DNA from: Clostridia bacterium
Lineage (GTDB): Bacteria; Bacillota; DTU025
Length of the DNA stretch: 64,000 nucleotides
NCBI GenBank assembly: GCA_034926675.1
Contig: JAYFQW010000028.1
Coordinates: 4,693-68,692 of the forward strand
Reading direction: 5' to 3'
The position numbers and the translations under genes were made by a program. This document shows positions 7,610 through 55,924 of the stretch, one piece after another. The number at the start of each line of letters is the position of its first letter. Within the stretch, counting starts at the first letter, position 1. The notes beneath the pieces are model-generated. The model saw only the letters and a program-made list of their open reading frames with translations. It was not told the origin of the DNA and did no database searches.

Positions 7610-7656
7610 TCTAATCTCATACGGGTTTCTATTCCCTCGTATTGGGGGGCTGAAAT

Positions 7657-36192: not shown

Positions 36193-37290
36193 CTATCCGC
36201 GCCACCGCGCTCCCTCGTCCATCATGATCAGGTAGTTCTCCACAGGCACATAGTTCGCTATTGAGTTCCCGGATCCCAGCGCCCAGCGACCGGCAACGCA
36301 GTGCTCTATGATCTCTCGGACATACTCTCGGAGTTCCGCCTCTCCCATCCGGCATAGCTTATCCACGTCTACACCGCCTAGGGCAGCGACGCGATTGCCG
36401 TGTCGCGCCACGAAATCCGCCACTGGGATGATTTCGTCCTGAAATGAGTGAATAGCGTCAACGCCCACATCATCAATGAGGTCATCCATGATGGCCGACA
36501 GATTCCCGCAAGAGTGCAGCCAGTACATCTGGCCATGCTCATGAGCCAGGGCTGCGTACCGCTTGTGCCATGGGAACACGAGTTTACGAAGACGATCCGG
36601 GGAGATGAAGGTGGACGTCTTAAAGCCCATGTCATCGCCTTGAAAGAAGCCCGCGACGTTATCAAGGGTGCACGCGTTGCGGTAGAACGAGAGGAGCGCC
36701 TCTCCGGTCCGGCTGAACACAGCCTCCACCAAGGCTGGATCCTCATACAGCAGGATGCTCATCCCCTCGAACCCGAGTAGATACTCGGAGGCAATCTCGA
36801 ACACGCCGCTCGATGGGCAGACGAGCATCTTCATGCCATCTGGGAGGTTCTTCGACACGAACTCATAGGCGGAGTAGTCGACCTGATTCATCTTCGCCCA
36901 TGGGTATGACTGGAACTCATCCCATGAGGCGATCTCTCCGGAACTCTCCTCAACCCAACCACGCTCACCCCGGGAAAGGTCCGCTGTATCAACAGTGGCC
37001 CGGTGCTTGGCGCGGGGCACGTGAAGTCCGTCGCCGACCCGAATGTAGTCATAGCCCATGCGGCGCCAGAATGCGATTTGCTGCTTCCAGTAGCCCTCGA
37101 AACTGTACTCCGGTGATGTGATCGGTTTCTCACCGAGGCAGCTCTGCAGCACTTCAGCAACGATCTCTCTGTCTGCGAAAAGCTCGGCGTAGTGAACACG
37201 GGCAGCCTTGCGTGTGCCCTCAAGCACCTGCCTGAACTCGGCGAAATCGGGCCTGGGATCATCGAACGGGACGAGCAGCTTTCCTGCCAT
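36193..37290 (-). CDS. uroporphyrinogen decarboxylase (URO-D)/MtaA-family protein (candidate corrinoid-dependent methyltransferase)
   Basis: URO-D family core (FQGDDMGFKTSTFISPDRLRKLVFPWHKRY), H-x-C-G zinc motif of MtaA-type methyltransferases (HSCGN) and a second Cys (EHCVAG). Confidence 0.65.
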   Translation of the reverse strand: MAGKLLVPFDDPRPDFAEFRQVLEGTRKAARVHYAELFADREIVAEVLQSCLGEKPITSPEYSFEGYWKQQIAFWRRMGYDYIRVGDGLHVPRAKHRATVDTADLSRGERGWVEESSGEIASWDEFQSYPWAKMNQVDYSAYEFVSKNLPDGMKMLVCPSSGVFEIASEYLLGFEGMSILLYEDPALVEAVFSRTGEALLSFYRNACTLDNVAGFFQGDDMGFKTSTFISPDRLRKLVFPWHKRYAALAHEHGQMYWLHSCGNLSAIMDDLIDDVGVDAIHSFQDEIIPVADFVARHGNRVAALGGVDVDKLCRMGEAELREYVREIIEHCVAGRWALGSGNSIANYVPVENYLIMMDEGARWRG

Positions 37291-37463
37291 GGTAGGTCCC
37301 TCCCTGTGTGAGTGGTATAGCTGAGCCTCAGCCCCGGGGTTCGCCGCATTGCCGGGCGGGGTGCGCCAGGTAGTCCGGGGCGGGCGATCAGGTTCGGTTC
37401 GTGGCGGTTCCAGATGCGGTTCCAGATATGGATAAGGCCCGCCTCAGGGGGTGGGCCTCATCC

Positions 37464-37486
37464 CTGTCTGACTGCATCTCAGACAG
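37464..37486 (-). terminator. intercistronic stem-loop(s) immediately downstream of the substrate-binding protein gene
   Basis: Perfect inverted repeat CTGTCTGA-N7-TCAGACAG plus a second GC-rich hairpin (GGCCCGCC...GGTGGGCC) at 37430-37460. Confidence 0.35.
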
Positions 37487-37494
37487 TCAGCGTG

Positions 37495-38739
37495 TCACTT
37501 CAGCTCGGCGTTTGCCTCTTTGATCAGCGTCACTGCATCTGCGAGCGCGCGGTCAGGGCTATTCTGGTTGCGAAGAACAATGTCGATGGCATTGTTCATC
37601 GGCACCCACACTGCGTTCATCTCCGGGATATCGGGCAGGATGCATCCATAGTCGGCTTGCGCGCCGAATCCGACGACCTCAGGGCTATTCTTGGCCTCCG
37701 GAGTATCGAGGACATCAAGCCGCGGGGGAATGCCCTCGGCGTTCCGGAAAGACCTCAGCATCGCATCCCTGGAAGTCAAGTAGGCTATGAGCTTGACCGC
37801 GTCGGCCTTGTTCTTGCTGTATGAGCTCACATGCCACCACTTGAGGCTCACGAACGGCGAGGGATACTTTCCATTGTCCAGTTTCGGCAGGGGCGCGACT
37901 CCGTAGTCGATTCCGGCCTGCTTCACATTAGTGATGATCCACGGACCATCGACGATGGCGGCTGCCTTGCCCTCAGTGAACTTGGCAGGAGCAGCCACGT
38001 AGTCGGTTCCAACCGGGATCAGACCCTCATCGCGGAATACCTTGAGCAACTTCAATGCCTTCACTGATCCGGCATTCGCGAGTCCGATGTTCTTCGCGTC
38101 CCAGCCGTTGGCAGTCGGAGTGAACACGTATCCGCCATAGGCATTCATGAATGGATAAGCGTAGTAGAAGTTCTCCATCGGCCACAACACGCCGAACATG
38201 CCCTTCTTCAAGAGCTCCTTCGACCTGGAGATCATCTCATCCATTGTGGCTGGCGGCGTCGGCCAGATCTTCTTGTTGTAGATCAGCCCGATTGTCGAGA
38301 TGTCGTAAGGAACTCCGTAGAGCTTGCCGTCAACAGTCGCTCCATCTAGGCCCACCTTCATGAACTTGGAGGCATCGATCGAAGTGCGGTCTATGGGCGA
38401 CAACATGCCGGTAACGGTGAGTATTCCGAGCTTGCCTGAGAGTGAGCAGAACACGTCCGGCCCTTTACCCATGGGGCCGGCGAGGGCGATTCTGTCGGCG
38501 GTTTCCAGAACGCCTACTGACTCAATGCTCACAGACCTTCCACTGGTCTTCGTCCACTCGTCTGCTATCGCTCTTATGGTGGCTACCTTCTGAGGTTCAC
38601 ACCAAACCACGATCGGATCCGCTGCTACTGCATACACAGCGCTCAGCGAAAGAAGCAGCAGCCCGACTGCGAGAACGCACAGAACTCGAGTCCATGATTT
38701 CACGTGAGATTCCCTCCTCCATGTGGATTCGCATGACAT
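37495..38739 (-). CDS. extracellular solute-binding protein family 1 (sugar ABC transporter substrate-binding protein)
   Basis: Signal peptide, maltose/oligosaccharide-binding-protein-like sequence. Confidence 0.8.
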   Translation of the reverse strand: MSCESTWRRESHVKSWTRVLCVLAVGLLLLSLSAVYAVAADPIVVWCEPQKVATIRAIADEWTKTSGRSVSIESVGVLETADRIALAGPMGKGPDVFCSLSGKLGILTVTGMLSPIDRTSIDASKFMKVGLDGATVDGKLYGVPYDISTIGLIYNKKIWPTPPATMDEMISRSKELLKKGMFGVLWPMENFYYAYPFMNAYGGYVFTPTANGWDAKNIGLANAGSVKALKLLKVFRDEGLIPVGTDYVAAPAKFTEGKAAAIVDGPWIITNVKQAGIDYGVAPLPKLDNGKYPSPFVSLKWWHVSSYSKNKADAVKLIAYLTSRDAMLRSFRNAEGIPPRLDVLDTPEAKNSPEVVGFGAQADYGCILPDIPEMNAVWVPMNNAIDIVLRNQNSPDRALADAVTLIKEANAELK

Positions 38740-38800
38740 AAACGGCTGACAGATCGCCGGGCCTGCAAGGCCCGCACATATGCACCTCCTCAGACGATGA

Positions 38801-39673
38801 TCACTTAATGGCGCCCTGGGTCATGCCTGACACAATGTACTGCTCAGCTGACAGGAACACGATGACAATTGGAATTGCGGTAAGCACCGACACTGCGGAG
38901 AAAGAGGCCCACTGCGTCGAGAACTGAGACGAGGTGAGGCTCCTCATGCCGAGTACTGAGGTCCACTTGGCGGTGGAGGTTATGATCACCTGCGCCATGA
39001 TGTACTCCGAATAGGGCCCGAGGAAATTCACCAAACCGACTACGTACAGTATCGGCTTTGCCAAAGGAAGGAGTATTCTTACGAACGCCTGAAACCTAGT
39101 GGCGCCGTCGATCATGGCCGACTCCTCAATCTCCTTGGGCAATGAATCGAAGTACCCCTTGAGAAGCCACACCGAGAAGGGGATCGCACCTCCCACATAC
39201 ACGATTATCAGCCCCAGGTAGGTATCGATTAGGCCTGCCCATCCAAGGAGAGTGTAGAGCGCCACAATCGCCATGAAACTGGGGAACATCTGCATAATCA
39301 TCGATGCTATCAGCCCTTGCCTACGCCCTGGAAATCTCATTCTTGAGAAAGCATAGGCCGCTGGTGTTGTTACAGCGAGCGCTGCAAGGGCTGTGAGTAC
39401 GGAAACCTTGACCGTATTCATGATCCAGCGCGGGAAATTCACGTCGGGATCGGTGAGTACCGTCTTGTAGTTGTCGAGTGTTACTGTATCAGGAATGAGA
39501 GAAGAGCCCACGAGGCCAGTGGAAGCCTTGAATGAGCACGATGCCACCCAGAGAAGTGGATAGAGAACCAAGACGCAGGCGACTGCCAGCACAAGGTAGA
39601 GAAGCACCAGCTCAAGCATGTTGCCTGCTTTTTTACGGTAGCTTGTGCGCTCGGATCTGCAAACGTTCGCCAT
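38801..39673 (-). CDS. CUT1-family sugar ABC transporter permease (MalG-like)
   Basis: EAA loop (EIEESAMIDGATR), six TM segments. Confidence 0.8.
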   Translation of the reverse strand: MANVCRSERTSYRKKAGNMLELVLLYLVLAVACVLVLYPLLWVASCSFKASTGLVGSSLIPDTVTLDNYKTVLTDPDVNFPRWIMNTVKVSVLTALAALAVTTPAAYAFSRMRFPGRRQGLIASMIMQMFPSFMAIVALYTLLGWAGLIDTYLGLIIVYVGGAIPFSVWLLKGYFDSLPKEIEESAMIDGATRFQAFVRILLPLAKPILYVVGLVNFLGPYSEYIMAQVIITSTAKWTSVLGMRSLTSSQFSTQWASFSAVSVLTAIPIVIVFLSAEQYIVSGMTQGAIK

Positions 39674-39674
39674 C

Positions 39675-40970
39675 TCACTGCTCCTCCTGTTTGAGCTGTT
39701 TGAGGACTCCCGACAGCTTGAAGTTGGTCATGCTCATGATCACAACGAATGCGAAGACGAGCAGCGCGAGAGAGGATGCGTACGCCCACTGCAGTTGCCG
39801 GAAACCAACGTTGTACACCCATGTCATGAGGATGTCAGTCGCGCCTGCTCCCCTACTTCCGGGCACCGGTGGGCCGCCGCTTGTGAGCAGGTAGATGATT
39901 CCGAAGTTGTTAAAGTTGCCTGCGAACATCAGGACCGCCACAGGTGCGATGACTGACATCACGAGTGGGAAGGTGATGCGGGAGAATGAGTCCCACCTAG
40001 ATGCGCCGTCGACCCTTGCGGCCTCATACACCTCATTCGGCACACTCTGAAGCGCTGCCGAAATCACCGACATGTTGAATGGGAAAGCGATCCACACGTG
40101 CGTGAGGAGTACGCTCACTCTTGCCCAGAAGTTGTCCTGGAACCAGGATATCGGGGAAAGCCCGATTGACTTCAGTAGTCCATTGATGGGGCCGAAGCTT
40201 GTGTTGAAGAGGCCGAAAAACACCATGATCGTCACTGCTGAGGGGATCGCCCATGGCAGCATAAGGATGGTTCGGAACATGCGGCGAAGCCGAATCTGCC
40301 TATTCTGCAGAGTGAGGGCCAGAACCAGCCCAACAAGAAATGCAAAGACCGTGCCCAATGCGGCGTACGCGAGGTTCCATGCGAGCACCGTATCGAGTTG
40401 GCCCCTCCATGAGGAGCCCGACTGGAGCAACTTCCTGAAGTTGGAGAAGCCTACCCAGTCGAATCTGCCGGCGGGTGGGCAATGGTACAAGTTGTAGTTG
40501 GTGAAGGCCAGCGCAACGTTGAATAGCAGTGGGATGAGTATTACGAAGGCTGTAAGAGCCATAGCTGGCGCGATGTAGAAGTAGGGTGCGGCGGATCTCA
40601 GGAAAGCGTGCCAGTCGCTTCCGGCGCTGACCTCTTCTGGCAGGCGTCCACATAGGCGCACAAACTGCGCGGTCTTGACGGCATCGGCGACGTTTGCTGC
40701 GTGGAACCACGCGTATGCTCCTACTGCCAGCGCCGAAAGGATGCCAACTAGAAGGATGTGGCGTGAATCAACGAACCTGCCGACGGGGTTCAGAGTCACC
40801 AGGCCGTAGAGAGGATCCCTGAGCGTCGTGATGGCGAGCACCAGGAAGATTGCCTCGATACACATGAATGCCAGAGCCTTCCGCCGCTGCCCATTGTAGA
40901 CCTGCCCTGCACCGGCGATCAGGGCTGAGAGGACTCCGGCGACTTTTGGATTGGGGTTCCGTGCCTTCAC
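39675..40970 (-). CDS. CUT1-family sugar ABC transporter permease (MalF-like, extended N-terminus)
   Basis: EAA loop (EVYEAARVDGASR), polytopic membrane protein. Confidence 0.8.
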   Translation of the reverse strand: MKARNPNPKVAGVLSALIAGAGQVYNGQRRKALAFMCIEAIFLVLAITTLRDPLYGLVTLNPVGRFVDSRHILLVGILSALAVGAYAWFHAANVADAVKTAQFVRLCGRLPEEVSAGSDWHAFLRSAAPYFYIAPAMALTAFVILIPLLFNVALAFTNYNLYHCPPAGRFDWVGFSNFRKLLQSGSSWRGQLDTVLAWNLAYAALGTVFAFLVGLVLALTLQNRQIRLRRMFRTILMLPWAIPSAVTIMVFFGLFNTSFGPINGLLKSIGLSPISWFQDNFWARVSVLLTHVWIAFPFNMSVISAALQSVPNEVYEAARVDGASRWDSFSRITFPLVMSVIAPVAVLMFAGNFNNFGIIYLLTSGGPPVPGSRGAGATDILMTWVYNVGFRQLQWAYASSLALLVFAFVVIMSMTNFKLSGVLKQLKQEEQ

Positions 40971-41126
40971 ATCCAGTCCCTCCGTTGTGCCTCGTATTTG
41001 CCGTCCATACTCCCGCCCGACGTCGCTCTGCTCAGATCAGCCAAGCAATGCCATGCGGGCTGGACCGACATGGGATCTGTGTCCCATCTGTGTTCCGTAC
41101 GTGTCACACGTATCTGACTGTCCCCG

Positions 41127-42257
41127 TTACCTCGAATACTTGCGCTCCTGGGCCCTGAATACGCTCACTGCCTCCGTGGCCTCGTCCGCCGTGTCGGTCA
41201 CCACGGAGAATACCAGTCGCACATGTTTCGATAGGCCGTAGTAGTCGGATATCTCGGCTGCAGAGGCATCGACCGCGATCACAGGCTTGTCGGGCGATCT
41301 GCCAAAGAGGTCTGGATGCTTTTCTATGAGGTTGCTGAGAATCTGCACTGGACGAGTCTGGTTCGGGTCCGCAACGATCTGTATCTGCCGCAAATGCTTA
41401 AGCTTCAGGAATTCAGGCATCACGTGGGGGCCGGCAGAGTGGCAGTGGACCTCGCCGATTCCGAAAGCATCAAATGCACGCTGAGTGTATGGAGCGCCGA
41501 ACTCCCGATAGTGGGCGGGGGAACAGAGGCTAGATATGTCTTCCGACACAGCTATCCTGTTTGGAGCGCAGTGCCATGCTGAAAGCTCATGTGCGAACTG
41601 GGGAGCGAATATCTCCCTTATCTGAGCCGACGCGAACCAGATGGTCGCATCCGTAGCAAGTTTCATGAGGCGGTGGACGAATTCCGGGTCTTCGTAGAAA
41701 TCCATGTAGATGGCCTCGCCCCGAAGCGCCCAGGCCAGGTCGAGGGGTGAGTAGTAGCCGCGCCCCAGAGGTATCCTGTATGGAGCGATCTTCTCCAGGG
41801 TGTAGCGGGTAGCGGCGTTGAGGCGAACGAACCAGCGGTTAGCGGGGTCCAGGCTGAGGCGGGCAAGGTCGGATTTCTCCGTGATCACAGGTTTAGCCCA
41901 GCTAGTGTCGTCGCCAAACTCGATATCCCCGGCTACGAATGCGCTGAACTCCCCGATTCCCATGTAGGGAACAACCGATGGAATCCAGTCGTCGTCGATT
42001 CCGCGGCGGATATCCATTAGCTCCGCCTGATACGAAAGGTAGTCGTCGAGATATGAAGAAATCCCTTCCTCAAAATCGTACTGATTGAGAGAAGGGCCCT
42101 TGAGAGTGAGAACAGACGGGAATGTGTAGATGAGTGCGCTGGGAATGCTGGGTGAATCCGACGCCCCGGAGGTTGAGGGAATCCCACTGAAGAAGGCACG
42201 GACTCTCGACATGCAAGATTCCAGCTCGGGTCTGTAGTTCGAAATGTCACAAAACAT
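41127..42257 (-). CDS. URO-D/MtaA-family protein, paralogue of 36193..37290
   Basis: Shares the FYEDPEFVHRLM / LYEDPALVEAVF block and overall architecture with the other URO-D-family gene. HCHSAG variant at the metal-site position. Confidence 0.6.
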   Translation of the reverse strand: MFCDISNYRPELESCMSRVRAFFSGIPSTSGASDSPSIPSALIYTFPSVLTLKGPSLNQYDFEEGISSYLDDYLSYQAELMDIRRGIDDDWIPSVVPYMGIGEFSAFVAGDIEFGDDTSWAKPVITEKSDLARLSLDPANRWFVRLNAATRYTLEKIAPYRIPLGRGYYSPLDLAWALRGEAIYMDFYEDPEFVHRLMKLATDATIWFASAQIREIFAPQFAHELSAWHCAPNRIAVSEDISSLCSPAHYREFGAPYTQRAFDAFGIGEVHCHSAGPHVMPEFLKLKHLRQIQIVADPNQTRPVQILSNLIEKHPDLFGRSPDKPVIAVDASAAEISDYYGLSKHVRLVFSVVTDTADEATEAVSVFRAQERKYSR

Positions 42258-43348: not shown

Positions 43349-44119
43349 ATCATGGGTTCCGCCATCTCGCGGCCCATGTTCAGCACCCTTGGGCGTTCAG
43401 TTGCTCGGTTTTCGCTGCAGCCCTGAGCTCGTTAGGTACTCTGTACCTGAGGCATTGCCTTGGCATCGTGGAAGGCAACGTCTCGCACGCCGCTTACAGC
43501 CGCTGATGCGGCTCCGTGGTTCTCAAGCTTCCGGTCCCGCAGGCTGTCAATGTCGGCCAAACCAGCATTGTCGCGCGCTCAATGCCACTCAATTGGACAT
43601 TGACGGTCCGACTTCCGCGGTCGAGGTTCGCGCAGATTCCATGACGCGCGCGGGCGATTTCCGAAAACGCGTCTAGCTGCAAGTAAGCCGCGCCACAGTG
43701 TGCCATGATCCCGCCCTCTCGCGCGCAGTGTCGCCAATCTCGCCGGAACGCACGTTTGGAGGATCTCAATGCTGGTTTCATCGACATCGCGGGCTTCTCA
43801 ATGTCGATTCCATCGACATTGAGCTCGTCTCACTGCTGGATTCCTCGACATTATCGCTCCAGTGCTCGGTCGCCCCTCGTCAGGCGGCGCGGGGATGCAG
43901 CCGGGGACCATCACGCTGCTTGCAGAGCCCACGGTCGAACCAGGGCTCCTGCAGCTCATGGCAGATCTGCGCCGCTGTAGGGACCAGCTATGCAAGCGGG
44001 AGCAATCGGCATGCTCTGGGTGCATATCGCTTTGAGAAGGAATGAAGCATCAAGTGGAGAAATCGGCACTACAGTACTGATACGCGAAGGATGCAGCATG
44101 TTGACGCAATCGATCACAT

Positions 44120-45994
44120 ATGTGCTCGGTGGGGGTGTGTGGGATGTCCGCCAATAGGCGTACTGGGGACGCCCAAGAGCAAGCGCCTGAACTCGCTGGC
44201 CTTGCAGAAGATGCGCAGAAGGCATGCGATGCCATAGCGGCCGTAGTAGGTCTGGAAGTGGAAATTGTCGACAAGAACCTGCTTCGGATAGCTGGAACTG
44301 GCAAGTACCGTCTCCGCGTAGGGCATTCACTCGAACACGAAGGCGCAGTGTATCGGCAAGTCCTCAGAACTGGTCAGGGCACAATTGTAACCAGGCCCGG
44401 TCTGGAACCCATTTGTGGCCTGTGTTCCAAGTACGGTAGTTGCGACGAGAAGGCGGAGCTTTCTGCACCGATAGCCGTTGAAGGCGATATTGTAGGCGTC
44501 ATCGGGCTGGTCTGCTTCGACCAATCCCAGCGCGCCAGGCTGCTGGACAGGCTTGAGTGTCACAAGAACTTCATCGAACATATGGCCGGTCTGCTTGCAA
44601 GCAAGATTCGAGAGCACGCTCTGTTGGAACAGGAGCGGCGCGCTGCTCAAGAGGTCGCTGCGCTGCTCGATCGGATGGCCGACCCGGTGCTGGCTGTAGA
44701 TCAGAATGGAAGGCTGGTCCATTACAACGTCCCGGCAGGCCGGCTTCTGAATATCCCTGATGGCGATGGCTTCAGTGCTGCCCAGCGGGAGAAACGCATG
44801 GTCTGCAGCACTGAGGAACTGGGGTTCTTGGAAAGCACTCTCAGAACCAAGGAAGGGTTCGAGGAGAAGGAGATGTTTCTCAGTTTCGGGGGAGTCGAGA
44901 AACCCTATCTCGTATCCGCTACGCCGTTGGCATCGGGAGGGCTTATCTACGGTGCTATGGCGGTGATCCGTCCGCTGGGAGAACTCCACCGCTGGGCCTA
45001 CAACTTGACGAATGCCGTGAAGGTATTCACGCTCAACGACATCATCGGGGAGAGCCCTGCGATCCAGCTCATCAAGGAGAAGGCGCTCAAGGTGGCGGGA
45101 GGCAAGTCCAACATCCTGATAACAGGAGAAAGCGGCGCCGGGAAGGAGCTGCTCGCAAGGGGAATACACAATGCGAGCGGCCGTGCTGACCGGCCGTTTG
45201 TCGCGGTGAACTGCGCCGCGATTCCAGATACTCTCCTCGAGAGCGAGCTTTTCGGGTACGAAGAAGGAGCATTCACAGGCGCGAGAAAAGGCGGCAAACC
45301 TGGAAAGTTCGAACTCGCCGACGGGGGGACGATCTTTCTCGATGAAATAGGCGAGATGCCCATCCATCTCCAGGCGAAGCTGCTCAGAGTGCTCGAAGGC
45401 TGGGAAGTGGAGCGTGTTGGAGGCACTCGGTCAAGGCCCATCGATGTGCGACTCATGGCCGCCAGCAATCAGGACCTCGAAGGGAAGATCGCTTGCAGAG
45501 AGTTTCGCGAGGACCTGTATTTCCGTTTGAACGTAATACCTTTGCAGGTCCCGCCGCTGCGCGACAGAGAAGGAGACACTCCGCTCTTGGCACGCTACTT
45601 CATCCGAAAGCATGCCGCCTTGCTCAACAAGAAGATCGAGGGGATGGAACCCAGCGTGGCTAGGTTGTTCGAGAGCTACTGGTGGCCCGGCAATGTCCGC
45701 GAGCTTGAGAACACAATCGAGCATGCCGCCAACATCGAGAGTACATCCATCATTCATGAACGGAGTTTGCCAGAGACGATTCGCACCAGGGCATCGAGCG
45801 TCTCGAGGAAGTTGCGCGGCCATGCGGGCATTGACGACATGGAGGCGCGCCTGATAGAAAAAACCCTGGGGCGATACGGGTACAGCTACCGTGGCAAGCA
45901 ACAGGCGGCGCGCGAACTGGGAATCGGCATTGCCACCCTTTATCGGAAAATGGCTCGCTATGGCATCCCGGGAGTCCATGCCGCAAAACGATAG
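44120..45994 (+). CDS. sigma-54-dependent transcriptional activator (GAF/PAS sensor - AAA+ - Fis HTH); start uncertain
   Basis: GESGAGKE Walker A, canonical GAFTGA (EEGAFTGA), C-terminal HTH (QQAARELGIGIATLYRKMARYG). N-terminal sensor with a Cys cluster (PICGLCSKYGSC). Confidence 0.85.
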   Translation: MCSVGVCGMSANRRTGDAQEQAPELAGLAEDAQKACDAIAAVVGLEVEIVDKNLLRIAGTGKYRLRVGHSLEHEGAVYRQVLRTGQGTIVTRPGLEPICGLCSKYGSCDEKAELSAPIAVEGDIVGVIGLVCFDQSQRARLLDRLECHKNFIEHMAGLLASKIREHALLEQERRAAQEVAALLDRMADPVLAVDQNGRLVHYNVPAGRLLNIPDGDGFSAAQREKRMVCSTEELGFLESTLRTKEGFEEKEMFLSFGGVEKPYLVSATPLASGGLIYGAMAVIRPLGELHRWAYNLTNAVKVFTLNDIIGESPAIQLIKEKALKVAGGKSNILITGESGAGKELLARGIHNASGRADRPFVAVNCAAIPDTLLESELFGYEEGAFTGARKGGKPGKFELADGGTIFLDEIGEMPIHLQAKLLRVLEGWEVERVGGTRSRPIDVRLMAASNQDLEGKIACREFREDLYFRLNVIPLQVPPLRDREGDTPLLARYFIRKHAALLNKKIEGMEPSVARLFESYWWPGNVRELENTIEHAANIESTSIIHERSLPETIRTRASSVSRKLRGHAGIDDMEARLIEKTLGRYGYSYRGKQQAARELGIGIATLYRKMARYGIPGVHAAKR

Positions 45995-46000
45995 CAGCGC

Positions 46001-46119
46001 CTATCAATGTGATGGGTTTCATTATCAGTGGTTCTTTCGCAACAATGCCGCCAGCATATCGCGCATTTGACGCACTTTGACTCTACCCTCGCAGGCAGAT
46101 ATTACTATCAACATGATAG
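46001..46119. promoter_or_regulatory. two palindromic candidate enhancer (UAS) sites CTATCA-N3-TGATRG (46001-46015 and 46105-46119)
   Basis: CTATCAacaTGATAG is a perfect 6-3-6 palindrome and CTATCAatgTGATGG has one mismatch. Centres are about 104 bp apart and about 105-210 bp upstream of the sigma-54 promoter. Confidence 0.4.
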
Positions 46120-46215
46120 GCGGCGTTCCTTGACGTCAGAAGCCTCGCTATTTCGACAGTGATAACTGCCCAGCTAAACGCGGGTGTTGTCGAACTTGTG
46201 GTCTAGATGTGGCAT

Positions 46216-46231
46216 GGCGTGGAAATTGCAT
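46216..46231 (+). promoter_or_regulatory. sigma-54 (-24/-12) promoter TGGCGT-N5-TTGCA
   Basis: tGGcgtggaaattGCa with GG/GC spacing of 10, about 105 nt upstream of the 46337 ATG and downstream of the sigma-54 activator gene. Confidence 0.55.
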
Positions 46232-46336
46232 GTCTTATCAGATCGAATGCACAGGCGCGATGTAACAACATGGATGGCAGGCGTATCGTGAGTGGCGCTT
46301 TGAGGAAGCCTGCCAAGCCTTATAGGAGGAAGTTGC

Positions 46337-47728
46337 ATGTCTCGGAGGATGGTATGGGGACCGACATTCGAGGAGATGCTGCATCCCGACAAGATCGACC
46401 CTCAGATCCGGAAGCAGGCTCTCGCAGCAAGGGAGAGCGATCCGCTCAACGAGATCAACCTGTACAATATCACCTGGAAGCGGCCGGATGGGAAGCCGTG
46501 TTACGTTGTCATTCCCAAAAAACTGACCGGAGTAGATGCCAACATCATAGCTCTGTACGGTCGGGACTTCCCCACGGGTTCACACAAGGTGGGGGCAACG
46601 TACACGGTTACGGTCGAAAAACAGCTCAATGGGGAGATCACTCCAGGTGAGCACACAGTGGTGTTCCCGTCCACAGGCAATTACGGAATAGGCGGCGCCT
46701 GGGTGGGGCCCCGCATGGGCTACGACTCCTTGGTGATTCTTCCTGAACTGATGAGCGCGGAGCGTTTCCAGAAGATCGAAGGATACGGGGCAAGGTACAT
46801 CAAGACAACGGGCTGTGAATCCAGCGTGAAAGAGATATACGATAAGTGCTGGGAGCTTAAGCGCCAACCCGAGATACGGGTGCTCAACCAGTTCGAAGTG
46901 ATGGGCAACTACAGATTCCACTACTACGTCACGGGCAATACCGCAGTTGAACTTGTTGCCGATCTCGCAAAGCGCGGAATAGGCAACGGCAGGTGCGCGG
47001 CGTTCGTCTCGGCGATGGGCTCTGGAGGCACCATAGCCGCAGGCGATAGGCTGAAAGAGGTCTTCCCCGAACATCGCATAGTCGGCCTTGAGCCGATTCA
47101 GTGCCCGACCCTTTTCAACAACGGATACGGCGACCACGACATCCAAGGCATTGGCGACAAGCACGCCACATGGATTCACAACGTTATGAACATGGATTGC
47201 CTCATGTGCATCGATGATATGGAGAGCAAGTGGGGCCTGCAACTGCTGACAGATCCTGTGGGCATGGAGTATCTGGCGCAGAATGCAGGAATCCCAGAAG
47301 AGACTGTACGCGAGATGTCCACCTTGTTTGGCATCTCAGGTGTATGCAACGTTCTGGGCGCGATCAAGACAGCTAAGCACTACAGGATGACCAGCAGCGA
47401 AAACGTGGTCACTGTGCTTACCGACACCATAGATCGTTACCATTCGGTGATGAGCGCATTGGATGACAAATTCGGCAAGATGGATGCAGGCAAGGCAGAA
47501 GCCCGCTTGTCAGGCATCTTCCGGAGCGCCAAGCTTGACTACATTCAAGAGGGAACTGTTAACAATCGCGATAGATGGTTCAACCTCAAGTACTACACCT
47601 GGGTTGAGCAACAGGGCAAGACAGTTGCTGAGCTGAACGCGCAGAGAAGCCAGGCCTGGTGGGCTGAAGAGCGGAGTAAAGTCCTTGATATCAACGACCG
47701 CCTTTGCCAAGCGCGAAAGCGGTCATGA
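46337..47728 (+). CDS. PLP-dependent enzyme, fold type II (TrpB/CysK/ThrC superfamily), 463 aa, specificity unknown
   Basis: PLP-lysine motif PTGSHKVG and glycine-rich phosphate loop [21 protein letters not shown]. Confidence 0.65.
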
Positions 47729-48965
47729 GAGCGGTGATGAGAGAGGAGTGATCACGATTAGCTTCCCTTTCGAGAAAGCATTGGATCAAGCAGAAGGATA
47801 CCGAAAGCAGATCTCCGGATTCCTGCGCGACATGGTCGCGATACCAGGTGAAAGCTGTCAGGAGAAGGCAGTGATCCAGCGGATCGGAGAGGAAATGGAG
47901 GCCGTAGGTTTCGACAAGATCGAGATCGATCCTATGGGCAACATCCTCGGACGCATTGGAACTGGCAAGACCCTGATAGCGATGGACGCACACGTTGACA
48001 CCGTTGGCATTGGAGACCCAAGCCTCTGGGAAGTCGATCCGTACAAGGGATACGAGGACGAGAACATCATCATGGGCAGAGGCGCCAGCGATCAGAGGGG
48101 CGGCATGGCCTCGATGGTGTATGCCGGCAAGATAATCAAGGATCTGGGCCTTGAGGGCGACTATACTTTCCTGGTGACCGGAACCGTTCAGGAAGAGGAC
48201 TGCGATGGCCTCTGTTGGCAATACCTCATCCACGATGGCGGAATTCGGCCCGACTTCGCCGTGATTACCGAGCCGACATCACTGAACATCTACCGTGGGC
48301 AGCGTGGACGTATGGAGATAAAGGTGACGACTAAGGGCATAAGCTGCCACGGATCCGCTCCTGAGCGGGGCGACAACGCGATCTACAAGATCGCCCCCAT
48401 CCTTCAGGAACTGCGTGCCCTAAACGAGAACCTTCATGTAGATTCGTTCCTGGGCAAAGGGAGCCTGACCGTATCCGAGGTCTTCTTCAGCTCGCCTTCC
48501 AGGTGCGCAGTTGCTGACGGGTGCTGGATCTCCGTCGACCGCCGGTTAACAGACGGGGAGACGTGGGAAATGGCTCTCGAGCAGATAAGGAATCTTCCGG
48601 CAGTTAAGGAAGGAAAGGCCGAGGTGTCGATGTACGGGTACGACCAGCCGTCATATACAGGTCTGGTGTATCCCACAGAGTGCTTCTTCCCGACCTGGGT
48701 CCTTCCCGGCGACCACATGGTCTGTGAGACGCTAGTCGATGCCTACCGTGGTCTATTCCAGAAGGATCCCCTCGTGGACAAATGGACATTTTCCACCAAT
48801 GCAGTGTCCATCATGGGGCGATACGATATCCCTTGTATAGGATTCGGCCCCGGGCACGAGGATCAGGCCCATGCTCCCAACGAGAGGACCTGGAAGGACG
48901 AACTGGTGAAAGCGACTGCCATGTACGCGATGATTCCCTTGCTCTATACCTCGAAAACCGCCTGA
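47685..48965 (+). CDS. M20-family metallohydrolase (ArgE/DapE/carbamoylase/YgeY-like); start uncertain (TTG at 47685 or GTG about 47748)
   Basis: M20 metal-binding motifs (AMDAHVDTV; [10 protein letters not shown]), dimerisation domain region. Confidence 0.75.
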
Positions 48966-49005: not shown

Positions 49006-49992
49006 ATGCAGACGATTTTCAGGGGAAAACACTTCATCACCTTGGAGGAATGGTCGCTTGAGGAGATCGATACGCTTCTGGATGTGTCGTATGAGCTGAA
49101 GCGCGATTTTGCCATGGACAGGCCCACAGATTACCTGCCGCGCAAGACCGTGTTCCTCATGTTCTTTGAGCAGTCTACGCGCACTCGAAACTCAATGGAA
49201 GCCGGCATTACGCAGTTGGGCGGACATGCCCACTTCCTCGATGCCAGCAACATGCAGATCGCGCACGGCGAAGTCGCCAAGGATACGGCAGTCATCCTCT
49301 CGAGAATGGGCCACGCCATAGCCTGCAGGAACTGCTTCTGGAAGCAGGGGAATACGTATCTTCGCGACATGGCGAAGGCTTCGACAGTCCCCATCATCAG
49401 CATGCAGGACGATCTGTATCACCCACTTCAGGCCATTGCAGACCTGATGGCGATCCAGGAGAAGAAGGGCAGGAACACCAGGAACCTTAAAGTCTCCGTG
49501 ATATGGGCGTACGCCACAACCCACAAGAAGCCCATCTCCGTTCCTGTGAGCCAGGTCCTTCTCTTCCCGAGATACGGAATCGATGTCACGCTTGCCTATC
49601 CAGAGGGATACGATCTGCCCGACTGGGTAATCGAGAAGGCCAGGAAGAACGCTGGCGCCCACGGCGGATCCTTCAGGATAACTCATGACCAGGAAGAAGC
49701 CTATCGAGATGCCGACGTCGTATTCCCCAAGAACTGGGGCAGCTGGGTGACCAACGAGAGCACGGCAGTGGTTGACTCGCTTCTCGAAGCGAACAAGGGC
49801 TGGAAGTGCACCAGCGCCCGGATGGCGCTGACGGCGAAGGATTCACTATACATGCACGCCCTGCCTGCCGACCGCCTCAACGAAGTAGAGGACGCCGTGA
49901 TCGACGGGCCTCACTCAGCCATCTACGATGAGGCAGAGAACAGGCTTCACACAGCAAAGGCCGTCATGGCGCTTACCATGGGGGGAAGATAG
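49006..49992 (+). CDS. carbamoyltransferase of the ATCase/OTCase superfamily with a non-canonical second-substrate site
   Basis: Carbamoyl-phosphate motifs STRTRNS and HPLQ are present. The ornithine SMG loop is replaced (DVVFPKNWGSW) and HCLP is replaced by HALP. Confidence 0.75.
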   Translation: MQTIFRGKHFITLEEWSLEEIDTLLDVSYELKRDFAMDRPTDYLPRKTVFLMFFEQSTRTRNSMEAGITQLGGHAHFLDASNMQIAHGEVAKDTAVILSRMGHAIACRNCFWKQGNTYLRDMAKASTVPIISMQDDLYHPLQAIADLMAIQEKKGRNTRNLKVSVIWAYATTHKKPISVPVSQVLLFPRYGIDVTLAYPEGYDLPDWVIEKARKNAGAHGGSFRITHDQEEAYRDADVVFPKNWGSWVTNESTAVVDSLLEANKGWKCTSARMALTAKDSLYMHALPADRLNEVEDAVIDGPHSAIYDEAENRLHTAKAVMALTMGGR

Positions 49993-50064: not shown

Positions 50065-50613
50065 GTGATACCGGAGTCGGCATGGATCCAGTCCCTGATG
50101 CCGGGGACCCGTTTCCACTGGGGGTTTTTCGTGGCTCTGGCGGCGGCCCTGCTGGCGTATGTGATTCTCTGGCGGACCAGCCTTGGCTTCAAAATCCGGG
50201 CTGTGGGCATGAACCGGAGCGCTGCCCGGTATGCGGGAATCGACGAGAAGAAGATATTCGTGATCGTCTTCCTGATCAGCGGAGCGTTTGCCGGCCTGGC
50301 CGGGTTCATGGAGGTCAATGGCATCCAGCACATGGCCGTCCAGGGGTTCAACCCGGTGCTGGGCTCGGAGGGGATAGGGATAGCCATCCTGGGCAACGCT
50401 CACCCTCTAGGAATTGTGCTCTCCGGCCTGCTGTTCGGGGCGCTCAAGGTGGGTGGAAACCTGCTGACGCAGACGACCACCATTCCATCTAGCATCATCG
50501 GGATCATGGAAGGCTTCGTGATGCTCTTTGTGGTTCTGTCGTACTTCGTCCAAAAGAAGATCATCCTGGCCCAGCGCAAGAGAGACCTGGTGAAAGGGGA
50601 GGAGAGCGTATGA
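50065..50613 (+). pseudogene. N-terminally truncated ABC transporter permease (RbsC/Bmp-type), C-terminal half only
   Basis: 182 aa beginning 72 nt after the preceding stop. Contains the mid-protein RAVGMNRSAARYAGI motif but lacks the N-terminal TM helices. Confidence 0.45.
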
Positions 50614-51544: not shown

Positions 51545-52291
51545 CTAAGCTAAGGCTTGACCGGGCGGACATGCTGCTTGAGTCCTCCGCGAGATGGTTT
51601 CGCACTTCTCTCTATGGACGCACACATCGCACATGCTATAGGCTCTGAGCCTTTCTGGGAGCGTCGGGCCCATGGGAAACATGACTGACACCGACTTGAG
51701 CGGGCTCATCATGAACGAGGAGGACAGTGTGACTCCGATTCTGCGGGCGTCGAGCAGCGAGAACAGCACTGCCTGGGACTCTATGGGGATGGCATGGCAC
51801 CCAGGCGCGAGCCTGGGGCCTATGTCAACCTGGAGGCGTTCCGCTTCCGCGCGTCTGGCGCAGACCGCTCGGAACTCGCCTGTCATGCGACGAAGGAGAA
51901 TAGTGCCCATCGTGTCGAGGACGACTGCGGCGAGGGGGTCGCCCGAGGCGAACACCTCCTGCACTCTGTGCTCCAGGTTCGGGCCTATGGTTCCGATGCC
52001 GATGGCTAAGTGTGTTGCCCCTTGAAGCAATGGGCCTGAACATGAGATGTCGAAGCCCCCTGCTAGGCTTATCGAGTCACGCGTGATGGCGGTAATCCTG
52101 CTGACCGTTGAGATGAGCATGGGCGTTGCGAGCCCTGCGGAGATTGCGACGTTGGCCTCTTCGATGGATTGGAGCACTGATTGAAGCGCAGCGCCGGATG
52201 ACTCGCCGCCGATGGCGGCGAGCACCTCTTCAGGCGGAATAGCAGTAGCCTGCATATGTATGATTCGGCAGTCAGCGTATGGCTCTATCAT
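51545..52291 (-). CDS. methionine-synthase activation-domain-like protein (Met_synt_B12-type, candidate SAM-dependent corrinoid reactivation)
   Basis: RLAPGCHAIP and SFMMSPLKSVSVMF resemble MetH activation-domain motifs RPAPGYPACP and SFAMWPGASVSGWYF. Lies 4 nt downstream of the RACo gene. Confidence 0.5.
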   Translation of the reverse strand: MIEPYADCRIIHMQATAIPPEEVLAAIGGESSGAALQSVLQSIEEANVAISAGLATPMLISTVSRITAITRDSISLAGGFDISCSGPLLQGATHLAIGIGTIGPNLEHRVQEVFASGDPLAAVVLDTMGTILLRRMTGEFRAVCARRAEAERLQVDIGPRLAPGCHAIPIESQAVLFSLLDARRIGVTLSSSFMMSPLKSVSVMFPMGPTLPERLRAYSMCDVCVHREKCETISRRTQAACPPGQALA

Positions 52292-52306
52292 TGTTGTGAC
52301 AGCCTT

Positions 52307-54292
52307 TCATAGTGGAACGTGGGACTGGGCTTCAAAGGTCATGCAGTCGGTGAAGACTTCCATGAACCTAGGATCCGCGCTTAACTCGATGTGCTCGATT
52401 ACGCGCGCAAGGCGGAGCGCCTCGCGGTAGAAGACGCTGTTCGCGACTGCTAGTGCCGCTCCTTCCCCTGCCGCGTTTCCGATCGACTCGATCCTGGCGC
52501 GTTGAGCGGCCGGCAGAAGGCCTATGGCCACTGCAGCCCGGTTATCCAGGTATGTGCCGAAGGCGCCTGCGAGGACTACTCGCTCAAGATCGCCCGCTCC
52601 AATTCCCGCCTGCGCAAGCAGGATCTCTGCGCCTGCCCTGATTGCTCCCTTTGCGAGCTGCAGCTCCCGAACATCGCGCTGGGTGAGGGCCACCTCGGGT
52701 GTGCTCTCCTTCGCTAGCTTCAGGATGAATCGAGCGCCGCCGGGTCCGTCTACGAGCCGCTTGTCGCCAGCGCCCTGGGCGTAGGCGCCATTGCCCAGGA
52801 TCAAACCTGCTTCGCGCAGTGCAGCCACCAGGCTCACTAACCCCGATCCGCACACCCCGATTGGTTCTCCGCCGCCGATCACGTGCAGCTCAATGCCTGC
52901 GTCCGTCTGCAGATGCGGCAGATGCCTGTCTGAAGTGCGCGGCTTGCGCAGCCCAGCCCAGTCGATGGCCCCATCGGAGGCGATCATCCCGCACGAGATG
53001 CTTACCCCCTCAAAGGCCGGCCCGGCTGCAGTGGAGCAGGCAAGCACTCGTCCATTCGCCGCGAGCAGTATCTCACCATTAGTGCCGATGTCGATAAGGA
53101 GCATGGGGCGTGAGTGCTCGTGGACGCCCGCTGCTACTGCTGCGGCAAGTGCGTCGGAGCCGACGAATCCGGCTATGTTCGGGAGAAAGAAGAAACGTCC
53201 AAGGGGGTTCACCGAGTGAACACCCACATCAAGCGGTGACATGAGTCCACAGTCAATCGCCGCCGGAGCGTATGGAAGCCTTGCTAGCCTGCCGGGTGCG
53301 ATGCCTAGGAACAGATGGTGCATGCAGGTGTTCCCAACGGCTCCCGTGAGGTAGATCTGCTTACTGCTCACCCCTGCTTGTGAGGCGAGCCTGGCTATGA
53401 GGCTGTCGATTGCGTCAACTGCCTCCGAACGCAACTCAGCGAGGCCGCCGGGGCTCTCGGAGTAGGCGATGCGCGAGATGAGGTCAGCGCCATGCCTGGA
53501 TTGCGGATTCAGCGTTCCCGTTGCGCCCACAATGTGGCCAGAGGACAGATCGATGAGATACGCCACGAGGGTGGTAGTGCCGATATCAAGTGCGATCCCA
53601 TAGGCGGAGGCGCGTACAGCGGACGTGCAGGCGGATGTGCAGGCGGCGGATGTGCAAGCGGCGCCCGCGGCTGCTGTCTCCGCCACATCGATCAGCTGGC
53701 CATCTACGGATACTCCGTGCAGCCGCAGGGCGCCCGTGCTTCCCGTGCCTGAGAAGGCCTGAGCCGCTCGCCTGATGAGGGGCAATACGCCCTGGCCGGC
53801 GTTGAACGCCGACGCGACGCGTTCCCAGTCGGAGGCGGCTGGCTTCTCCAGGTCGATCAGGACATCGCGCATCGTCACCCGAGGTTCGAATGCCGTTCGG
53901 GCGTCAGCAGACGGAGCGGCATTCGCTCCGCCCTCTGCCAGGGCCGGGTCTCCGTGCAGAAGCACGAAGGCAGAACGCTCAATATCTGGGCCGGCGGCGC
54001 CTATGATCACTTCGGAGTCGCCCGCGATTGCTGCCTGGCACGCGAGACGCACGCCGCCGGCGAGTTCAGCCTCGGTGAGCAATTCTCGCTCAGCGTCGGT
54101 CGGAGCCGAGAGTCCGCCAGTCGCTGATACCTTGCATCTACCGCACACTCCTCGACCGGCGCACGGGGCATACACGCCCACACCCGCACGCCTCAATATG
54201 TCGAGCAGCAAGGCGCCTGGTTCTGCAATTGCGCAGATCTCGGTATGTGCGCTTGGCTGCGCGGCGCGTCCTACGATTCGAACAGAGGTCAA
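52307..54292 (-). CDS. reductive activator of corrinoid proteins (RACo/RamA-like: N-terminal [2Fe-2S] ferredoxin + ASKHA ATPase)
   Basis: Plant-type ferredoxin Cys pattern (CAGRGVCGRCKV...LACQ). Large ASKHA-like domain with an Ala/Cys/Thr/Ser-rich low-complexity insert. Confidence 0.7.
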   Translation of the reverse strand: MTSVRIVGRAAQPSAHTEICAIAEPGALLLDILRRAGVGVYAPCAGRGVCGRCKVSATGGLSAPTDAERELLTEAELAGGVRLACQAAIAGDSEVIIGAAGPDIERSAFVLLHGDPALAEGGANAAPSADARTAFEPRVTMRDVLIDLEKPAASDWERVASAFNAGQGVLPLIRRAAQAFSGTGSTGALRLHGVSVDGQLIDVAETAAAGAACTSAACTSACTSAVRASAYGIALDIGTTTLVAYLIDLSSGHIVGATGTLNPQSRHGADLISRIAYSESPGGLAELRSEAVDAIDSLIARLASQAGVSSKQIYLTGAVGNTCMHHLFLGIAPGRLARLPYAPAAIDCGLMSPLDVGVHSVNPLGRFFFLPNIAGFVGSDALAAAVAAGVHEHSRPMLLIDIGTNGEILLAANGRVLACSTAAGPAFEGVSISCGMIASDGAIDWAGLRKPRTSDRHLPHLQTDAGIELHVIGGGEPIGVCGSGLVSLVAALREAGLILGNGAYAQGAGDKRLVDGPGGARFILKLAKESTPEVALTQRDVRELQLAKGAIRAGAEILLAQAGIGAGDLERVVLAGAFGTYLDNRAAVAIGLLPAAQRARIESIGNAAGEGAALAVANSVFYREALRLARVIEHIELSADPRFMEVFTDCMTFEAQSHVPL

Positions 54293-55266
54293 TGCCGTCC
54301 CTCCATCATGAATGCGTCGATGTTCTCGTGCGGGGTCTCATAGGGGAGGTCGCAACCGGTGCTGAGTATGAAGTTATCACGTTCCGCCATGGAGTCAAGC
54401 AATGCGCGCACTGCCCGAGCCACGTTCTCCGGGTCCTGCTGCACCATGACGCCGACTGGATCGACGTTGCCGATCAGCACGACCTCTGGGTCAACCACCC
54501 TGGCCGCTGCCGGGAAGTCCACCGGGGAATCGAGGGATAGCCCCTGTGCACCTGTTGAACACATCTCGCGCAGGAGGTGCGTGGTGTCGCCGCATATGTG
54601 TAAGACCATAATGTCGGCCATTCCGGGAGAGGCGATGAGTTCCTTGACGTACGTTCCACAGAATTCATGGAAAGATCTGGGGGATAGGAACGTGGCTGTG
54701 GGTTCGAGGATTGCGACCATGTCGGCTCCGGCGTCAGCCAGGGCCCGGGCATACCTGATGCACAGGTTCTGGCAGAATCTCACTGTACCATGAACGAGCT
54801 CGGGATCGGTGATGGTGGCGACCGCAAGCTCCGAGGCGCCCATGAGCAGACCGGCCAGGGTGAACGGTCCAGTTATGTATCCGGCTTTCGGGATCGAGAT
54901 GCTGCGGCTCATCAGTTCCATCGTCTTGACATATGCTGCTATCCTGGCATCGTCCATAGGATCGAGAGCATTCAGAAGGGCAAGATCGGTCACCTGGGTC
55001 ACTGGGTGCTCTTCCACCGTTGGCGATTCGAACGGAGGGTATCTCACAGGAAGGCCGAGGGCCCCCGCTTCTAGGGAAAGATCCATCATAAAGAAGATCG
55101 CATCGGGAGAGAACCGCTCTGCAGCCCGGGCCACGGTCCTGGCGTGCAGACCGGGGTTGAACTCGTTCTGCTTGAGAGAGGAGCCGGTGAGGCGTGCCCC
55201 AGGGTAGCCCAGCAGGGGCACGACAAGTCGCCGCTCTGATGATCGCACCAGATCAATGAGCCTCAT
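54289..55266 (-). CDS. MtaA/MtbA-like methylcobamide methyltransferase (URO-D family)
   Basis: DAIFFMMD, ILEPTATFLSP, zinc motif HICGDT with a second Cys (EMCSTG). Start at ATG 55266 (MRLIDL) after an AAAGGAGG RBS; the listed ORF extends to 55356. Confidence 0.7.
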   Translation of the reverse strand: MRLIDLVRSSERRLVVPLLGYPGARLTGSSLKQNEFNPGLHARTVARAAERFSPDAIFFMMDLSLEAGALGLPVRYPPFESPTVEEHPVTQVTDLALLNALDPMDDARIAAYVKTMELMSRSISIPKAGYITGPFTLAGLLMGASELAVATITDPELVHGTVRFCQNLCIRYARALADAGADMVAILEPTATFLSPRSFHEFCGTYVKELIASPGMADIMVLHICGDTTHLLREMCSTGAQGLSLDSPVDFPAAARVVDPEVVLIGNVDPVGVMVQQDPENVARAVRALLDSMAERDNFILSTGCDLPYETPHENIDAFMMEGRH

Positions 55267-55288
55267 TGAGCTGCCTCCTTTCCGCGCG

Positions 55289-55924
55289 TCACGCGTGAAC
55301 GAGCAGTCGCGCCAGGTCAACTGCCGAGCTTGCATCTGGAGAGTAGCCGTCCGCACCGATCTCCTTGGAGTAGCGGTCTGTAACTGGTGCGCCGCCTATG
55401 ATCACCTTGACCTGGTCCCTCAGGCCTGCAACCTTCAGGGATTCAATGGTAGCTTTCATGGCGGGCATTGTCGTTGTGAGAAGGGCGGACATCCCCAGAA
55501 TGTCGGGCCTCTCGTTCTTCACGGCATCAACGAACTTGCCAGGCGGCACATCAGTGCCCAGGTCAATCACTTCGAACCCAGCGCCTTCGAACATCATCTT
55601 AACAAGGTTCTTGCCGATGTCGTGAAGATCGCCCTTGACAGTGCCGATTACGAGCTTGCCGGCAAATGAAGCTCCCGTCTTCGCCAGGATCGGCCTGATT
55701 AGGTTCAGCCCCGCATACATCGCCCGTGCGGCCACCATCACCTCAGGGACGTAGATCTCGTTCCTCTTGAACTTGGCGCCAACGACCAACATCGGAGCAA
55801 TCAGGCCTTCATTCAGAATCTCCTGAACATCAACGCCATCTGCGAGCGCCTTCTCGGTGATCTCCTTCACCTTCGGCGCGTTTCCCGCATCAAGCGCCGC
55901 GCACATTTCGCTGTAGTCGAACAA
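55289..55924 (-). CDS. cobalamin-binding corrinoid protein (MtaC/MtbC-like; B12-binding_2 cap + Rossmann B12 domain)
   Basis: DxHxxG cobalamin-binding motif (DLHDIGKN), GGAPVT loop, about 210 aa. Confidence 0.8.
   Translation of the reverse strand: MFDYSEMCAALDAGNAPKVKEITEKALADGVDVQEILNEGLIAPMLVVGAKFKRNEIYVPEVMVAARAMYAGLNLIRPILAKTGASFAGKLVIGTVKGDLHDIGKNLVKMMFEGAGFEVIDLGTDVPPGKFVDAVKNERPDILGMSALLTTTMPAMKATIESLKVAGLRDQVKVIIGGAPVTDRYSKEIGADGYSPDASSAVDLARLLVHA

Follow-up and report, generated by a model that had tools for sequence, protein, structure and literature searches.

A putative self-contained sigma-54 catabolic switch of the YgeV/DioR type in an uncultured Clostridia lineage

We analyzed a 64,000-nucleotide stretch of a Clostridia bacterium genome (contig JAYFQW010000028.1; hereafter the window), and focused on a predicted sigma-54 activator gene, the 342-bp spacer that follows it and the three-gene operon that starts at 46337. 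Judged by its gene content, its DNA sites and their conservation, the locus very likely represents a self-contained sigma-54 catabolic switch of the type exemplified by YgeV of Escherichia coli and DioR of Clostridiales (Table 1). An earlier interpretation made from the nucleotides alone (the sequence-only reading) had placed the operon under an enhancer, this activator and a -24/-12 promoter, and the conservation of the same arrangement across orthologous loci supports this.

Two putative enhancer sites, a proximal site B and a distal site A, are found in the spacer. The sequence-only reading described them as two CTATCA-N3-TGATAG sites lying ~105 and ~210 bp upstream of the promoter; both sites are present and their centres agree with these distances, but site A carries one mismatch (TGATGG). 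When the core TATCA-N3-TGATA was searched with at most one mismatch, three sites were returned from the 64 kb, and two of them fell inside this spacer. First-order Markov simulations gave an expectation of 0.78 sites per 64 kb and a probability of ~9e-6 for two or more sites in the spacer. Furthermore, a symmetrised site matrix derived from 27 ortholog sites (consensus TTTATCAAATTGATAAA; 22 bits of information) yielded its three best matches in the 64 kb at 46104 (site B, score 15.06), 44023 (a third site, 14.05) and 46000 (site A, 10.2). All three flank the activator gene, and the next score is far lower. The third site lies upstream of the activator gene and has counterparts of the form TATCA/TCTCA-N3-TGAGA in the same position in three orthologous loci (L001, L003 and L009); given these counterparts, binding of the activator in front of the gene that encodes it, and hence autoregulation, is probable. 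Behind the third site, a block composed of TTGAGA, 17 bp and TGGAGA/TAGAGA might be the weak promoter of the activator gene itself, in which case autoregulation would follow.

The same layout recurs well beyond the window. The order of the activator followed by a 463-residue pyridoxal 5'-phosphate (PLP) enzyme is kept in more than ten loci from metagenomic contigs and metagenome-assembled genomes of several Bacillota lineages, whose activators are 51–82% identical. In all the orthologous loci with activators of 42–82% identity, one to three TATCA-N3-TGA(T/G)A sites stand directly past the activator stop codon and are followed by GG-N10-GC and then by the operon. Across 13 non-redundant loci, the site density reaches 5.85 per kb after the activator stop codon versus 0.041 per kb elsewhere, a 144-fold difference. 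The usual ortholog layout is a pair of sites at the stop codon, 17–20 bp from each other, with a third site after another 45–100 bp, and the last site stands ~52–196 bp from the promoter with no common helical phase. Helical phasing as a general feature was dropped on this ground: the '10 helical turns' noted earlier between the palindromes describe the spacing at this locus, but neither conservation nor consistent phasing of it was found in the orthologs. Site A lies within a window-specific segment of ~100 bp (~45993–46093) that is missing from the three closest relatives in the alignment. The four open reading frames (ORFs) of the window locus are intact and 79–92% identical to those of relatives that have the same three-gene operon (L003 and L010).

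The predicted promoter, TGGCGT-N5-TTGCA, is present and conserved as the sequence-only reading had it, but it occupies 46215–46230 rather than 46216–46231, one base off. A search with the consensus TGGCAC-N5-TTGCW, allowing up to two mismatches, found 30 matches where 32.4 were expected, that is, no enrichment. Because this search performed only at chance level, it was replaced by a matrix built from the promoters of 12 orthologous loci. With this matrix the site at 46214 ranks first among 127,966 positions on both strands, and second when three close relatives are left out of the matrix; an equivalent -24/-12 element is kept in all 12 orthologs. Transcription is expected to start near 46241. 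A scan of 43600–46400, which includes the spacer, found no sigma-70-like promoters.

Two further segments of the spacer deserve description. Between the enhancer and the promoter lies a conserved block that stays near-invariant despite diverging flanks (Table 1); its GCTAAACGC recurs in the locus L013 and a similar block is seen in L007. A second factor may bind there. Downstream, a leader segment of ~48 bp (~46282–46329) that is missing from the closest relatives contains a GGCAGGC...GCCTGCC hairpin just before the ribosome-binding site. Rfam gave no matches at gathering scores across the whole window and the structure of the 5' leader is not unusual (z = 0.31), and for these reasons we propose no riboswitch or other leader mechanism.

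The activator itself has the domains that the proposed role calls for. Its longest ORF opens at 44120, and the start at 44144 is supported by the orthologs and by a deposited protein of a Clostridia metagenome-assembled genome (P0001) that is identical to the 616-residue window activator and begins at the same codon. The ORF 44120–45994 matches the Pfam families Sigma54_activat (PF00158, E = 1.1e-67), AAA_lid_14 and HTH_8. The GAFTGA motif is coded at 45266–45283, and a Walker A motif (GESGAGKE) and a Walker B motif (FLDEIGE) are found in the translation. In the AlphaFold model, the helix-turn-helix (HTH) region consists of three helices at residues 563–606. Pfam support for the sensor domains is marginal, with 22.7 bits against a cutoff of 22.4 for GAF and 19.6 bits against 23.1 for PAS_4. 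A profile search of the PDB matched the PAS region to the PAS domains of DcuS, CitA and DhaR. The AlphaFold models reached a predicted local distance difference test score (pLDDT) of 89 with the full-length protein, for which 73 sequences were used, and of 82 with residues 1–300, and the solved structure that best matches the N-terminal model is the GAF-PAS sensor of E. coli DhaR (4lrx_C; E = 2e-12, template-modelling score 0.51, 279 columns); the GAF domain of SpoVT was also matched. Both the canonical GAFTGA and the N-terminal GAF/PAS sensor of the sequence-only reading were thus found. By its predicted domain content (GAF, PAS, AAA+ with GAFTGA and a Fis-type HTH), the activator is a complete bacterial enhancer-binding protein. 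The top NCBIfam match, PrdR, was rejected as an assignment, since it scores 352 bits against a cutoff of 795 and covers residues 162–615 only.

Extrapolating from the family, we propose the following mechanism. Activator dimers would bind the TATCA-N3-TGATA inverted repeats through the C-terminal Fis-type HTH, with sites B and A serving as the enhancer and the third site probably serving autoregulation. The N-terminal GAF-PAS module would sense a signal, upon which the AAA+ domains would assemble into an oligomer, and DNA looping would bring this oligomer to the sigma-54 RNA polymerase held in a closed complex at the -24/-12 promoter. The GAFTGA loops and ATP hydrolysis would then open the promoter, and the resulting transcript would encode the cysteine-synthase-like PLP enzyme, a YgeY-family hydrolase and a carbamoyltransferase. 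As for the inducer, the best guess from the regulon is a purine-derived intermediate or a ureido one.

Among the closest known systems is that of YgeV (IsrR) of E. coli, which is 36% identical to the window activator over 600 columns (BLASTP, E = 5e-122) and has the same GAF(CX2CX5C)-PAS-AAA+-HTH order. The E. coli operon ygeWXY-hyuA-yqeA and the window operon both contain YgeY and a carbamoyltransferase, and the ygeV-ygeW spacer holds the best site-matrix match in 11 kb, a TATCA-N3-TGAGA ~215 bp upstream of CTGGCACACTTATTGTTA (TGGCAC-N5-TTGT). The two systems differ in that ygeV and ygeW are divergent, whereas the window activator is co-directional with its operon and the sites start right at its stop codon. 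They also differ in that E. coli encodes the diaminopropionate ammonia-lyase YgeX and a knotted YgeW, in place of which the window has an unrelated 463-residue PLP enzyme and a transferase resembling ornithine carbamoyltransferase (OTC). YgeV is a predicted sigma-54 activator of ygeWXY and xdhABC (PMC10602906), and indole induces the ygeV gene (PMC9426417).

In Clostridiales, a DioR group of sigma-54 activators was predicted computationally by Nie, Dong and Yang (2019, BMC Genomics 20:565, PMC6615313), who listed its function as 'Unknown' and assigned to its regulon ygeW-ygfK-ssnA-ygeY, dpaL-pyrC-argE, pbuX and xdh genes. According to the supplementary table of that study, DioR sites such as ATTTATCATAATGATAAGG and ATTCTCGAATTGAGAATA occur in two to three copies, 100–250 bp upstream of TTGGCAT-N5-TTGCT. 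These sites, TTATCA-N3-TGATAA or TTCTCA-N3-TGAGAA, are of the same kind and geometry as the window sites; the likeness to DioR is drawn from motif, geometry and targets. The circuit design was already predicted in clostridia in 2019, and the present locus adds a compact example from a distant, high-GC (58%) uncultured Clostridia lineage, in which the leading PLP enzyme falls outside the published regulon.

The operon genes indicate what the switch may control. The 463-residue PLP enzyme ('PALP463') scores under every NCBIfam cutoff and has cysteine synthases as its nearest solved structures; AGGAGG precedes it at 46324–29, its ATGTCTCGG start is kept in close relatives, and it comes after the activator in L001–L016 and L041. 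Its identification as YgeX or OrtB was rejected, as it has no meaningful similarity to YgeX and gave no OrtB-type match in NCBIfam. The hydrolase scores 698 bits against a cutoff of 321 for TIGR03526 and is 67% identical to E. coli YgeY. The carbamoyltransferase is 36% identical to E. coli YgeW and reaches 184 bits with the YgeW model, under the cutoff of 453; it is 66% identical to the transferase beside YgeY and carbamate kinase in L017 and L018. In the reductive uric-acid (2,8-dioxopurine) pathway, YgeY and YgeW remove both ureido groups of 2,3-diureidopropionate (10.1101/2025.05.19.654654). We infer from these genes that the operon covers that end of the anaerobic reductive uric-acid pathway at which ureido groups are cleaved, or else a close variant.

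More distant relatives show the same genes in a wider setting. The homologous activator of Desulfitobacterium sp. Sab5 (42% identical) lies inside a pathway gene cluster with the xanthine permease PbuX, SsnA, a ThrC-like PLP enzyme, a 453-residue PLP enzyme, YgeY, a carbamoyltransferase, carbamate kinase and a hydantoinase. The cysteine-synthase-like PLP enzyme of 453–463 residues accompanies YgeY/SsnA/HyuA clusters in Firmicutes that are without YgeX (window 46337–47728; L017 3185–5845), and it is often paired with a ThrC-like PLP enzyme that bears an N-terminal Cys-rich ribbon. This enzyme may catalyse a so far uncharacterised reaction of the uric-acid pathway, or may substitute for one of its steps. 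Past the operon, a BPD_transp_2 permease ORF (50065–50613) begins 73 bp after the carbamoyltransferase gene, with no binding-protein or ATPase gene nearby, and matches positions 130–269 of the family model only. It is thus N-terminally truncated, which points to a deletion or rearrangement.

Several observations weigh against the interpretation of the locus as a YgeV/DioR-type switch. The -24 element TGGCGT differs from TGGCAC at two positions, and simple consensus matches occur at chance rate. Site A is imperfect, has no counterpart in the closest relatives and could double as a weak terminator hairpin. No rpoN gene was found within the 64-kb window, and we infer its presence elsewhere in the genome. 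Genes for SsnA, HyuA, YgeX, carbamate kinase and xanthine permease are likewise absent within the 64 kb; since these other pathway genes are missing from the window and the downstream permease is truncated, the physiological substrate may not be a uric-acid intermediate. We weighed three other explanations. That the palindromes are transcription terminators or RNA hairpins ending the activator gene, rather than protein-binding enhancer sites, is suggested by a terminator scan that marks 45999–46017, followed by TTTCATTATCA, and by the position of site A just past the stop codon, where it can fold into an RNA hairpin of -8.7 kcal/mol. This hairpin, however, does not stand out from shuffled sequence (z = -1.56; 19 of 200 shuffled versions are equally stable), while site B reaches only -5.2 kcal/mol and lacks a T-run. 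The orthologs keep the TATCA/TGATA sequence itself and not mere pairing, in two to three copies and also upstream of the activator gene, and the same motif stands upstream of unlinked DioR-regulon promoters in Clostridium as well as between the divergent genes ygeV and ygeW of E. coli, a position at which termination of ygeV is impossible. We therefore regard terminators as a highly unlikely account of the palindromes.

It is also quite unlikely, if slightly less so, that the TATCA-N3-TGATA sites are bound by another factor, such as a repressor or a PucR-type protein, with other binding sites for the sigma-54 activator, or none if it works from solution. The second conserved block, CCAGCTAAACGCGG, leaves room for another factor in the spacer, and a PucR-type gene follows the operon in L001; yet the motif accompanies the activator gene in Clostridia, in Desulfitobacteriaceae and in E. 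coli, irrespective of what else is nearby, and is found on both sides of that gene. A dyad of two half-sites of 5–6 bp suits a dimeric Fis-type HTH, and, according to Nie et al. (2019, PMC6615313), activators with similar DNA-binding domains also have similar motifs. The circuit could, finally, be a decaying remnant in which the operon has lost its link to the remaining pathway and the switch governs no working catabolic route, as the missing pathway genes, the truncated permease next to the operon and the window-specific insertions in the spacer would suggest. We consider this very improbable, because the four ORFs are intact and closely match those of L003 and L010, the sites and the promoter score best in the window, and the pathway genes absent here could lie elsewhere in the genome.

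The use of sigma-54 by this organism is supported by a second set of genes in the same window. A second activator of the response-regulator type (3843–5540) and a PAS histidine kinase (5602–7485) are accompanied by a second strong -24/-12 match, ATGGCGCCGTTATTGCAT, at 7593–7610, one of the two best in the window, 47 bp before flagellar rod/FliE/FliF genes. The 3843–7610 block looks like a FlrBC/FleSR-style sigma-54 control of flagella. The third-best match of the sigma-54 matrix, TGGGCACGGTCTTTGCAT, lies on the minus strand at 40341–40356, inside a long ATP-binding cassette (ABC) permease ORF (39675–40970), the real start of which may be further downstream. Around the switch locus (36193–42257 and 51545–57341), there are three URO-D/MtaA-like methyltransferases, a RACo corrinoid reductive activase (52307–54292), a MetH-activation-like protein and a PocR-AraC regulator, and these genes suggest corrinoid-dependent methyl transfer or demethylation.

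Table 1. Positions of the predicted features of the switch locus in the window (a dot marks features without strand)
Feature	Position	Strand	Remarks
Putative third operator, TATCGCTTTGAGA	44025..44037	.	107 bp upstream of the activator start codon; matrix match
Sigma-54 activator gene, YgeV/DioR type, 616 aa	44144..45994	+	longest ORF opens at 44120
N-terminal GAF domain, residues 17-165 of the 616-aa protein	44192..44638	+	Pfam GAF 22.7 bits and fold match to DhaR and SpoVT GAF
Cysteine triad C91-x2-C94-x5-C100	44414..44443	+	codons TGT 44414-16, TGT 44423-25, TGC 44441-43
PAS domain, residues ~180-290	44681..45013	+	Pfam PAS_4 19.6 bits, PAS 18.5 bits; five-strand PAS sheet in the AlphaFold model
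AAA+ sigma-54 interaction domain	45041..45544	+	PF00158 over residues 308-475 of the 624-aa ORF
C-terminal Fis-type HTH, DNA-binding domain	45833..45961	+	PF02954 HTH_8, 4.6e-9, residues 572-614
Putative distal enhancer site A, CTATCA-ATG-TGATGG	46001..46015	.	one mismatch; centre 208 bp upstream of the -24 GG; begins 7 bp past the activator stop
Putative proximal enhancer site B, CTATCA-ACA-TGATAG	46105..46119	.	perfect palindrome; centre 104 bp upstream of the -24 GG; aligns with the conserved site of L001, L003 and L009
Conserved block between enhancer and promoter, CCAGCTAAACGCGG	46170..46183	.	near-invariant in the window, L001, L003 and L009 despite diverging flanks
Predicted -24/-12 sigma-54 promoter, TGGCGT-GGAAA-TTGCA	46215..46230	+	GG 46216-17, GC 46228-29; 107 bp before ATG 46337
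463-aa fold-type II PLP enzyme, cysteine-synthase-like (PALP463), first operon gene	46337..47728	+	Pfam PALP
YgeY-family M20 hydrolase	47748..48965	+	ORF opens at 47685; likely start GTG 47748, from alignment
OTC-like carbamoyltransferase, 328 aa, role analogous to YgeW	49006..49992	+	Pfam OTCace_N, OTCace

A cysteine cluster in the sensor, pointed out by the sequence-only reading as a possible metal or redox site, is present as PICGLCSKYGSC, coded at 44408–44443. Its three cysteines sit in a loop between the GAF strands at residues 80–82 and 104–112, and this loop is modeled by AlphaFold with a pLDDT above 90. Among 73 homologs the triad is all-or-none, with three cysteines in 63 and zero in 10, and a fourth cysteine, C124, is found in just 21 of the 73. 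When the GAF domain alone was used as query against 1.84 billion cluster representatives, 651 clusters (50% identity) were returned; among the matches listed, the domain is always N-terminal and the full-length proteins have ~580 residues. CX2CX5C is found in 144 of the best 145 of the 651 cluster representatives, and on these sequences it is a hallmark of this GAF subfamily; E. coli YgeV also carries the triad, aligned in BLASTP. Paralogs that control different targets have the triad in common, which makes a role as cofactor, structural or redox element more likely than one as determinant of inducer specificity.

CX2CX5C also serves as an iron-sulfur ligand motif in NUBP1, RseC and SPASM domains, which we take as a lead only, and a literature search on CX2CX5C in YgeV-like proteins found nothing. 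It is conceivable, though on balance doubtful, that the CX2CX5C loop of the YgeV-type GAF binds an iron-sulfur cluster or another metal. NifA and NorR, GAF-AAA+-HTH activators that are gated by cysteines or a metal centre, provide a precedent for metal or redox gating. NorR uses non-haem iron. In NifA, the cysteines are placed in and after the AAA+ domain (PMC10590331). Neither protein is known to have a CX2CX5C loop in the GAF domain, and their likeness to the window activator lies in the shared domains.

Two other systems bear comparison with the window circuit. CdsR of Clostridium difficile (PMC5767170) is a PAS-AAA+-Fis activator which, like the window activator, is coded beside its target; sigL, cdsR and the region with the repeats are all required for cdsB to be expressed (Gu et al. 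2018), an experimental precedent for the design inferred here, and two TCTCA-N3/4-TGAGA inverted repeats lie ~180–210 bp upstream of the mapped sigma-54 promoter of cdsB. CdsR differs from the window circuit in that it responds to cysteine and drives a cysteine desulfidase. In two loci found with the GAF-domain query, L031 (7752–7990) and L038 (3705–3840), the activator shares ~38% identity with the window protein, and downstream of its gene come TCTCA-N3-TGAGA repeats, a TTGGCAC-N5-TTGC/ATGC promoter and a gene resembling cdsB; by this arrangement, both loci are CdsR-type circuits built on the same half-site architecture. E. coli DhaR (PDB 4lrx/4lry/4lrz) has the same domain order as the window activator, at a sequence identity of 16–17%. 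Its GAF domain works as a sensor through binding of two proteins, DhaK and DhaL, and the promoter served by DhaR is of the sigma-70 type.

To our knowledge, elucidation of the anaerobic uric-acid (2,8-dioxopurine) pathway in gut and sediment bacteria dates only from 2022–2025, and the regulation of this pathway is essentially unstudied. Our general understanding of sigma-54 regulation is unchanged by this locus, the use of which lies mainly in annotation and as a pointer to experiments. The operator consensus TATCA-N3-TGA(T/G)A appears to be conserved from E. coli to Clostridia, and the family of the 463-residue PLP enzyme is now linked to the uric-acid pathway. The three-cysteine sensor loop is nearly universal in the activator family. 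Should the loop indeed carry an iron-sulfur cluster or some other metal, gating by redox state, oxygen or a metal would extend to all 651 clusters of the family (YgeV/IsrR, DioR and relatives). Anaerobic breakdown of purines and ureides would then be turned on only in the presence of both a metabolite and a reduced cofactor, and a first handle on the signal of E. coli YgeV would be gained.

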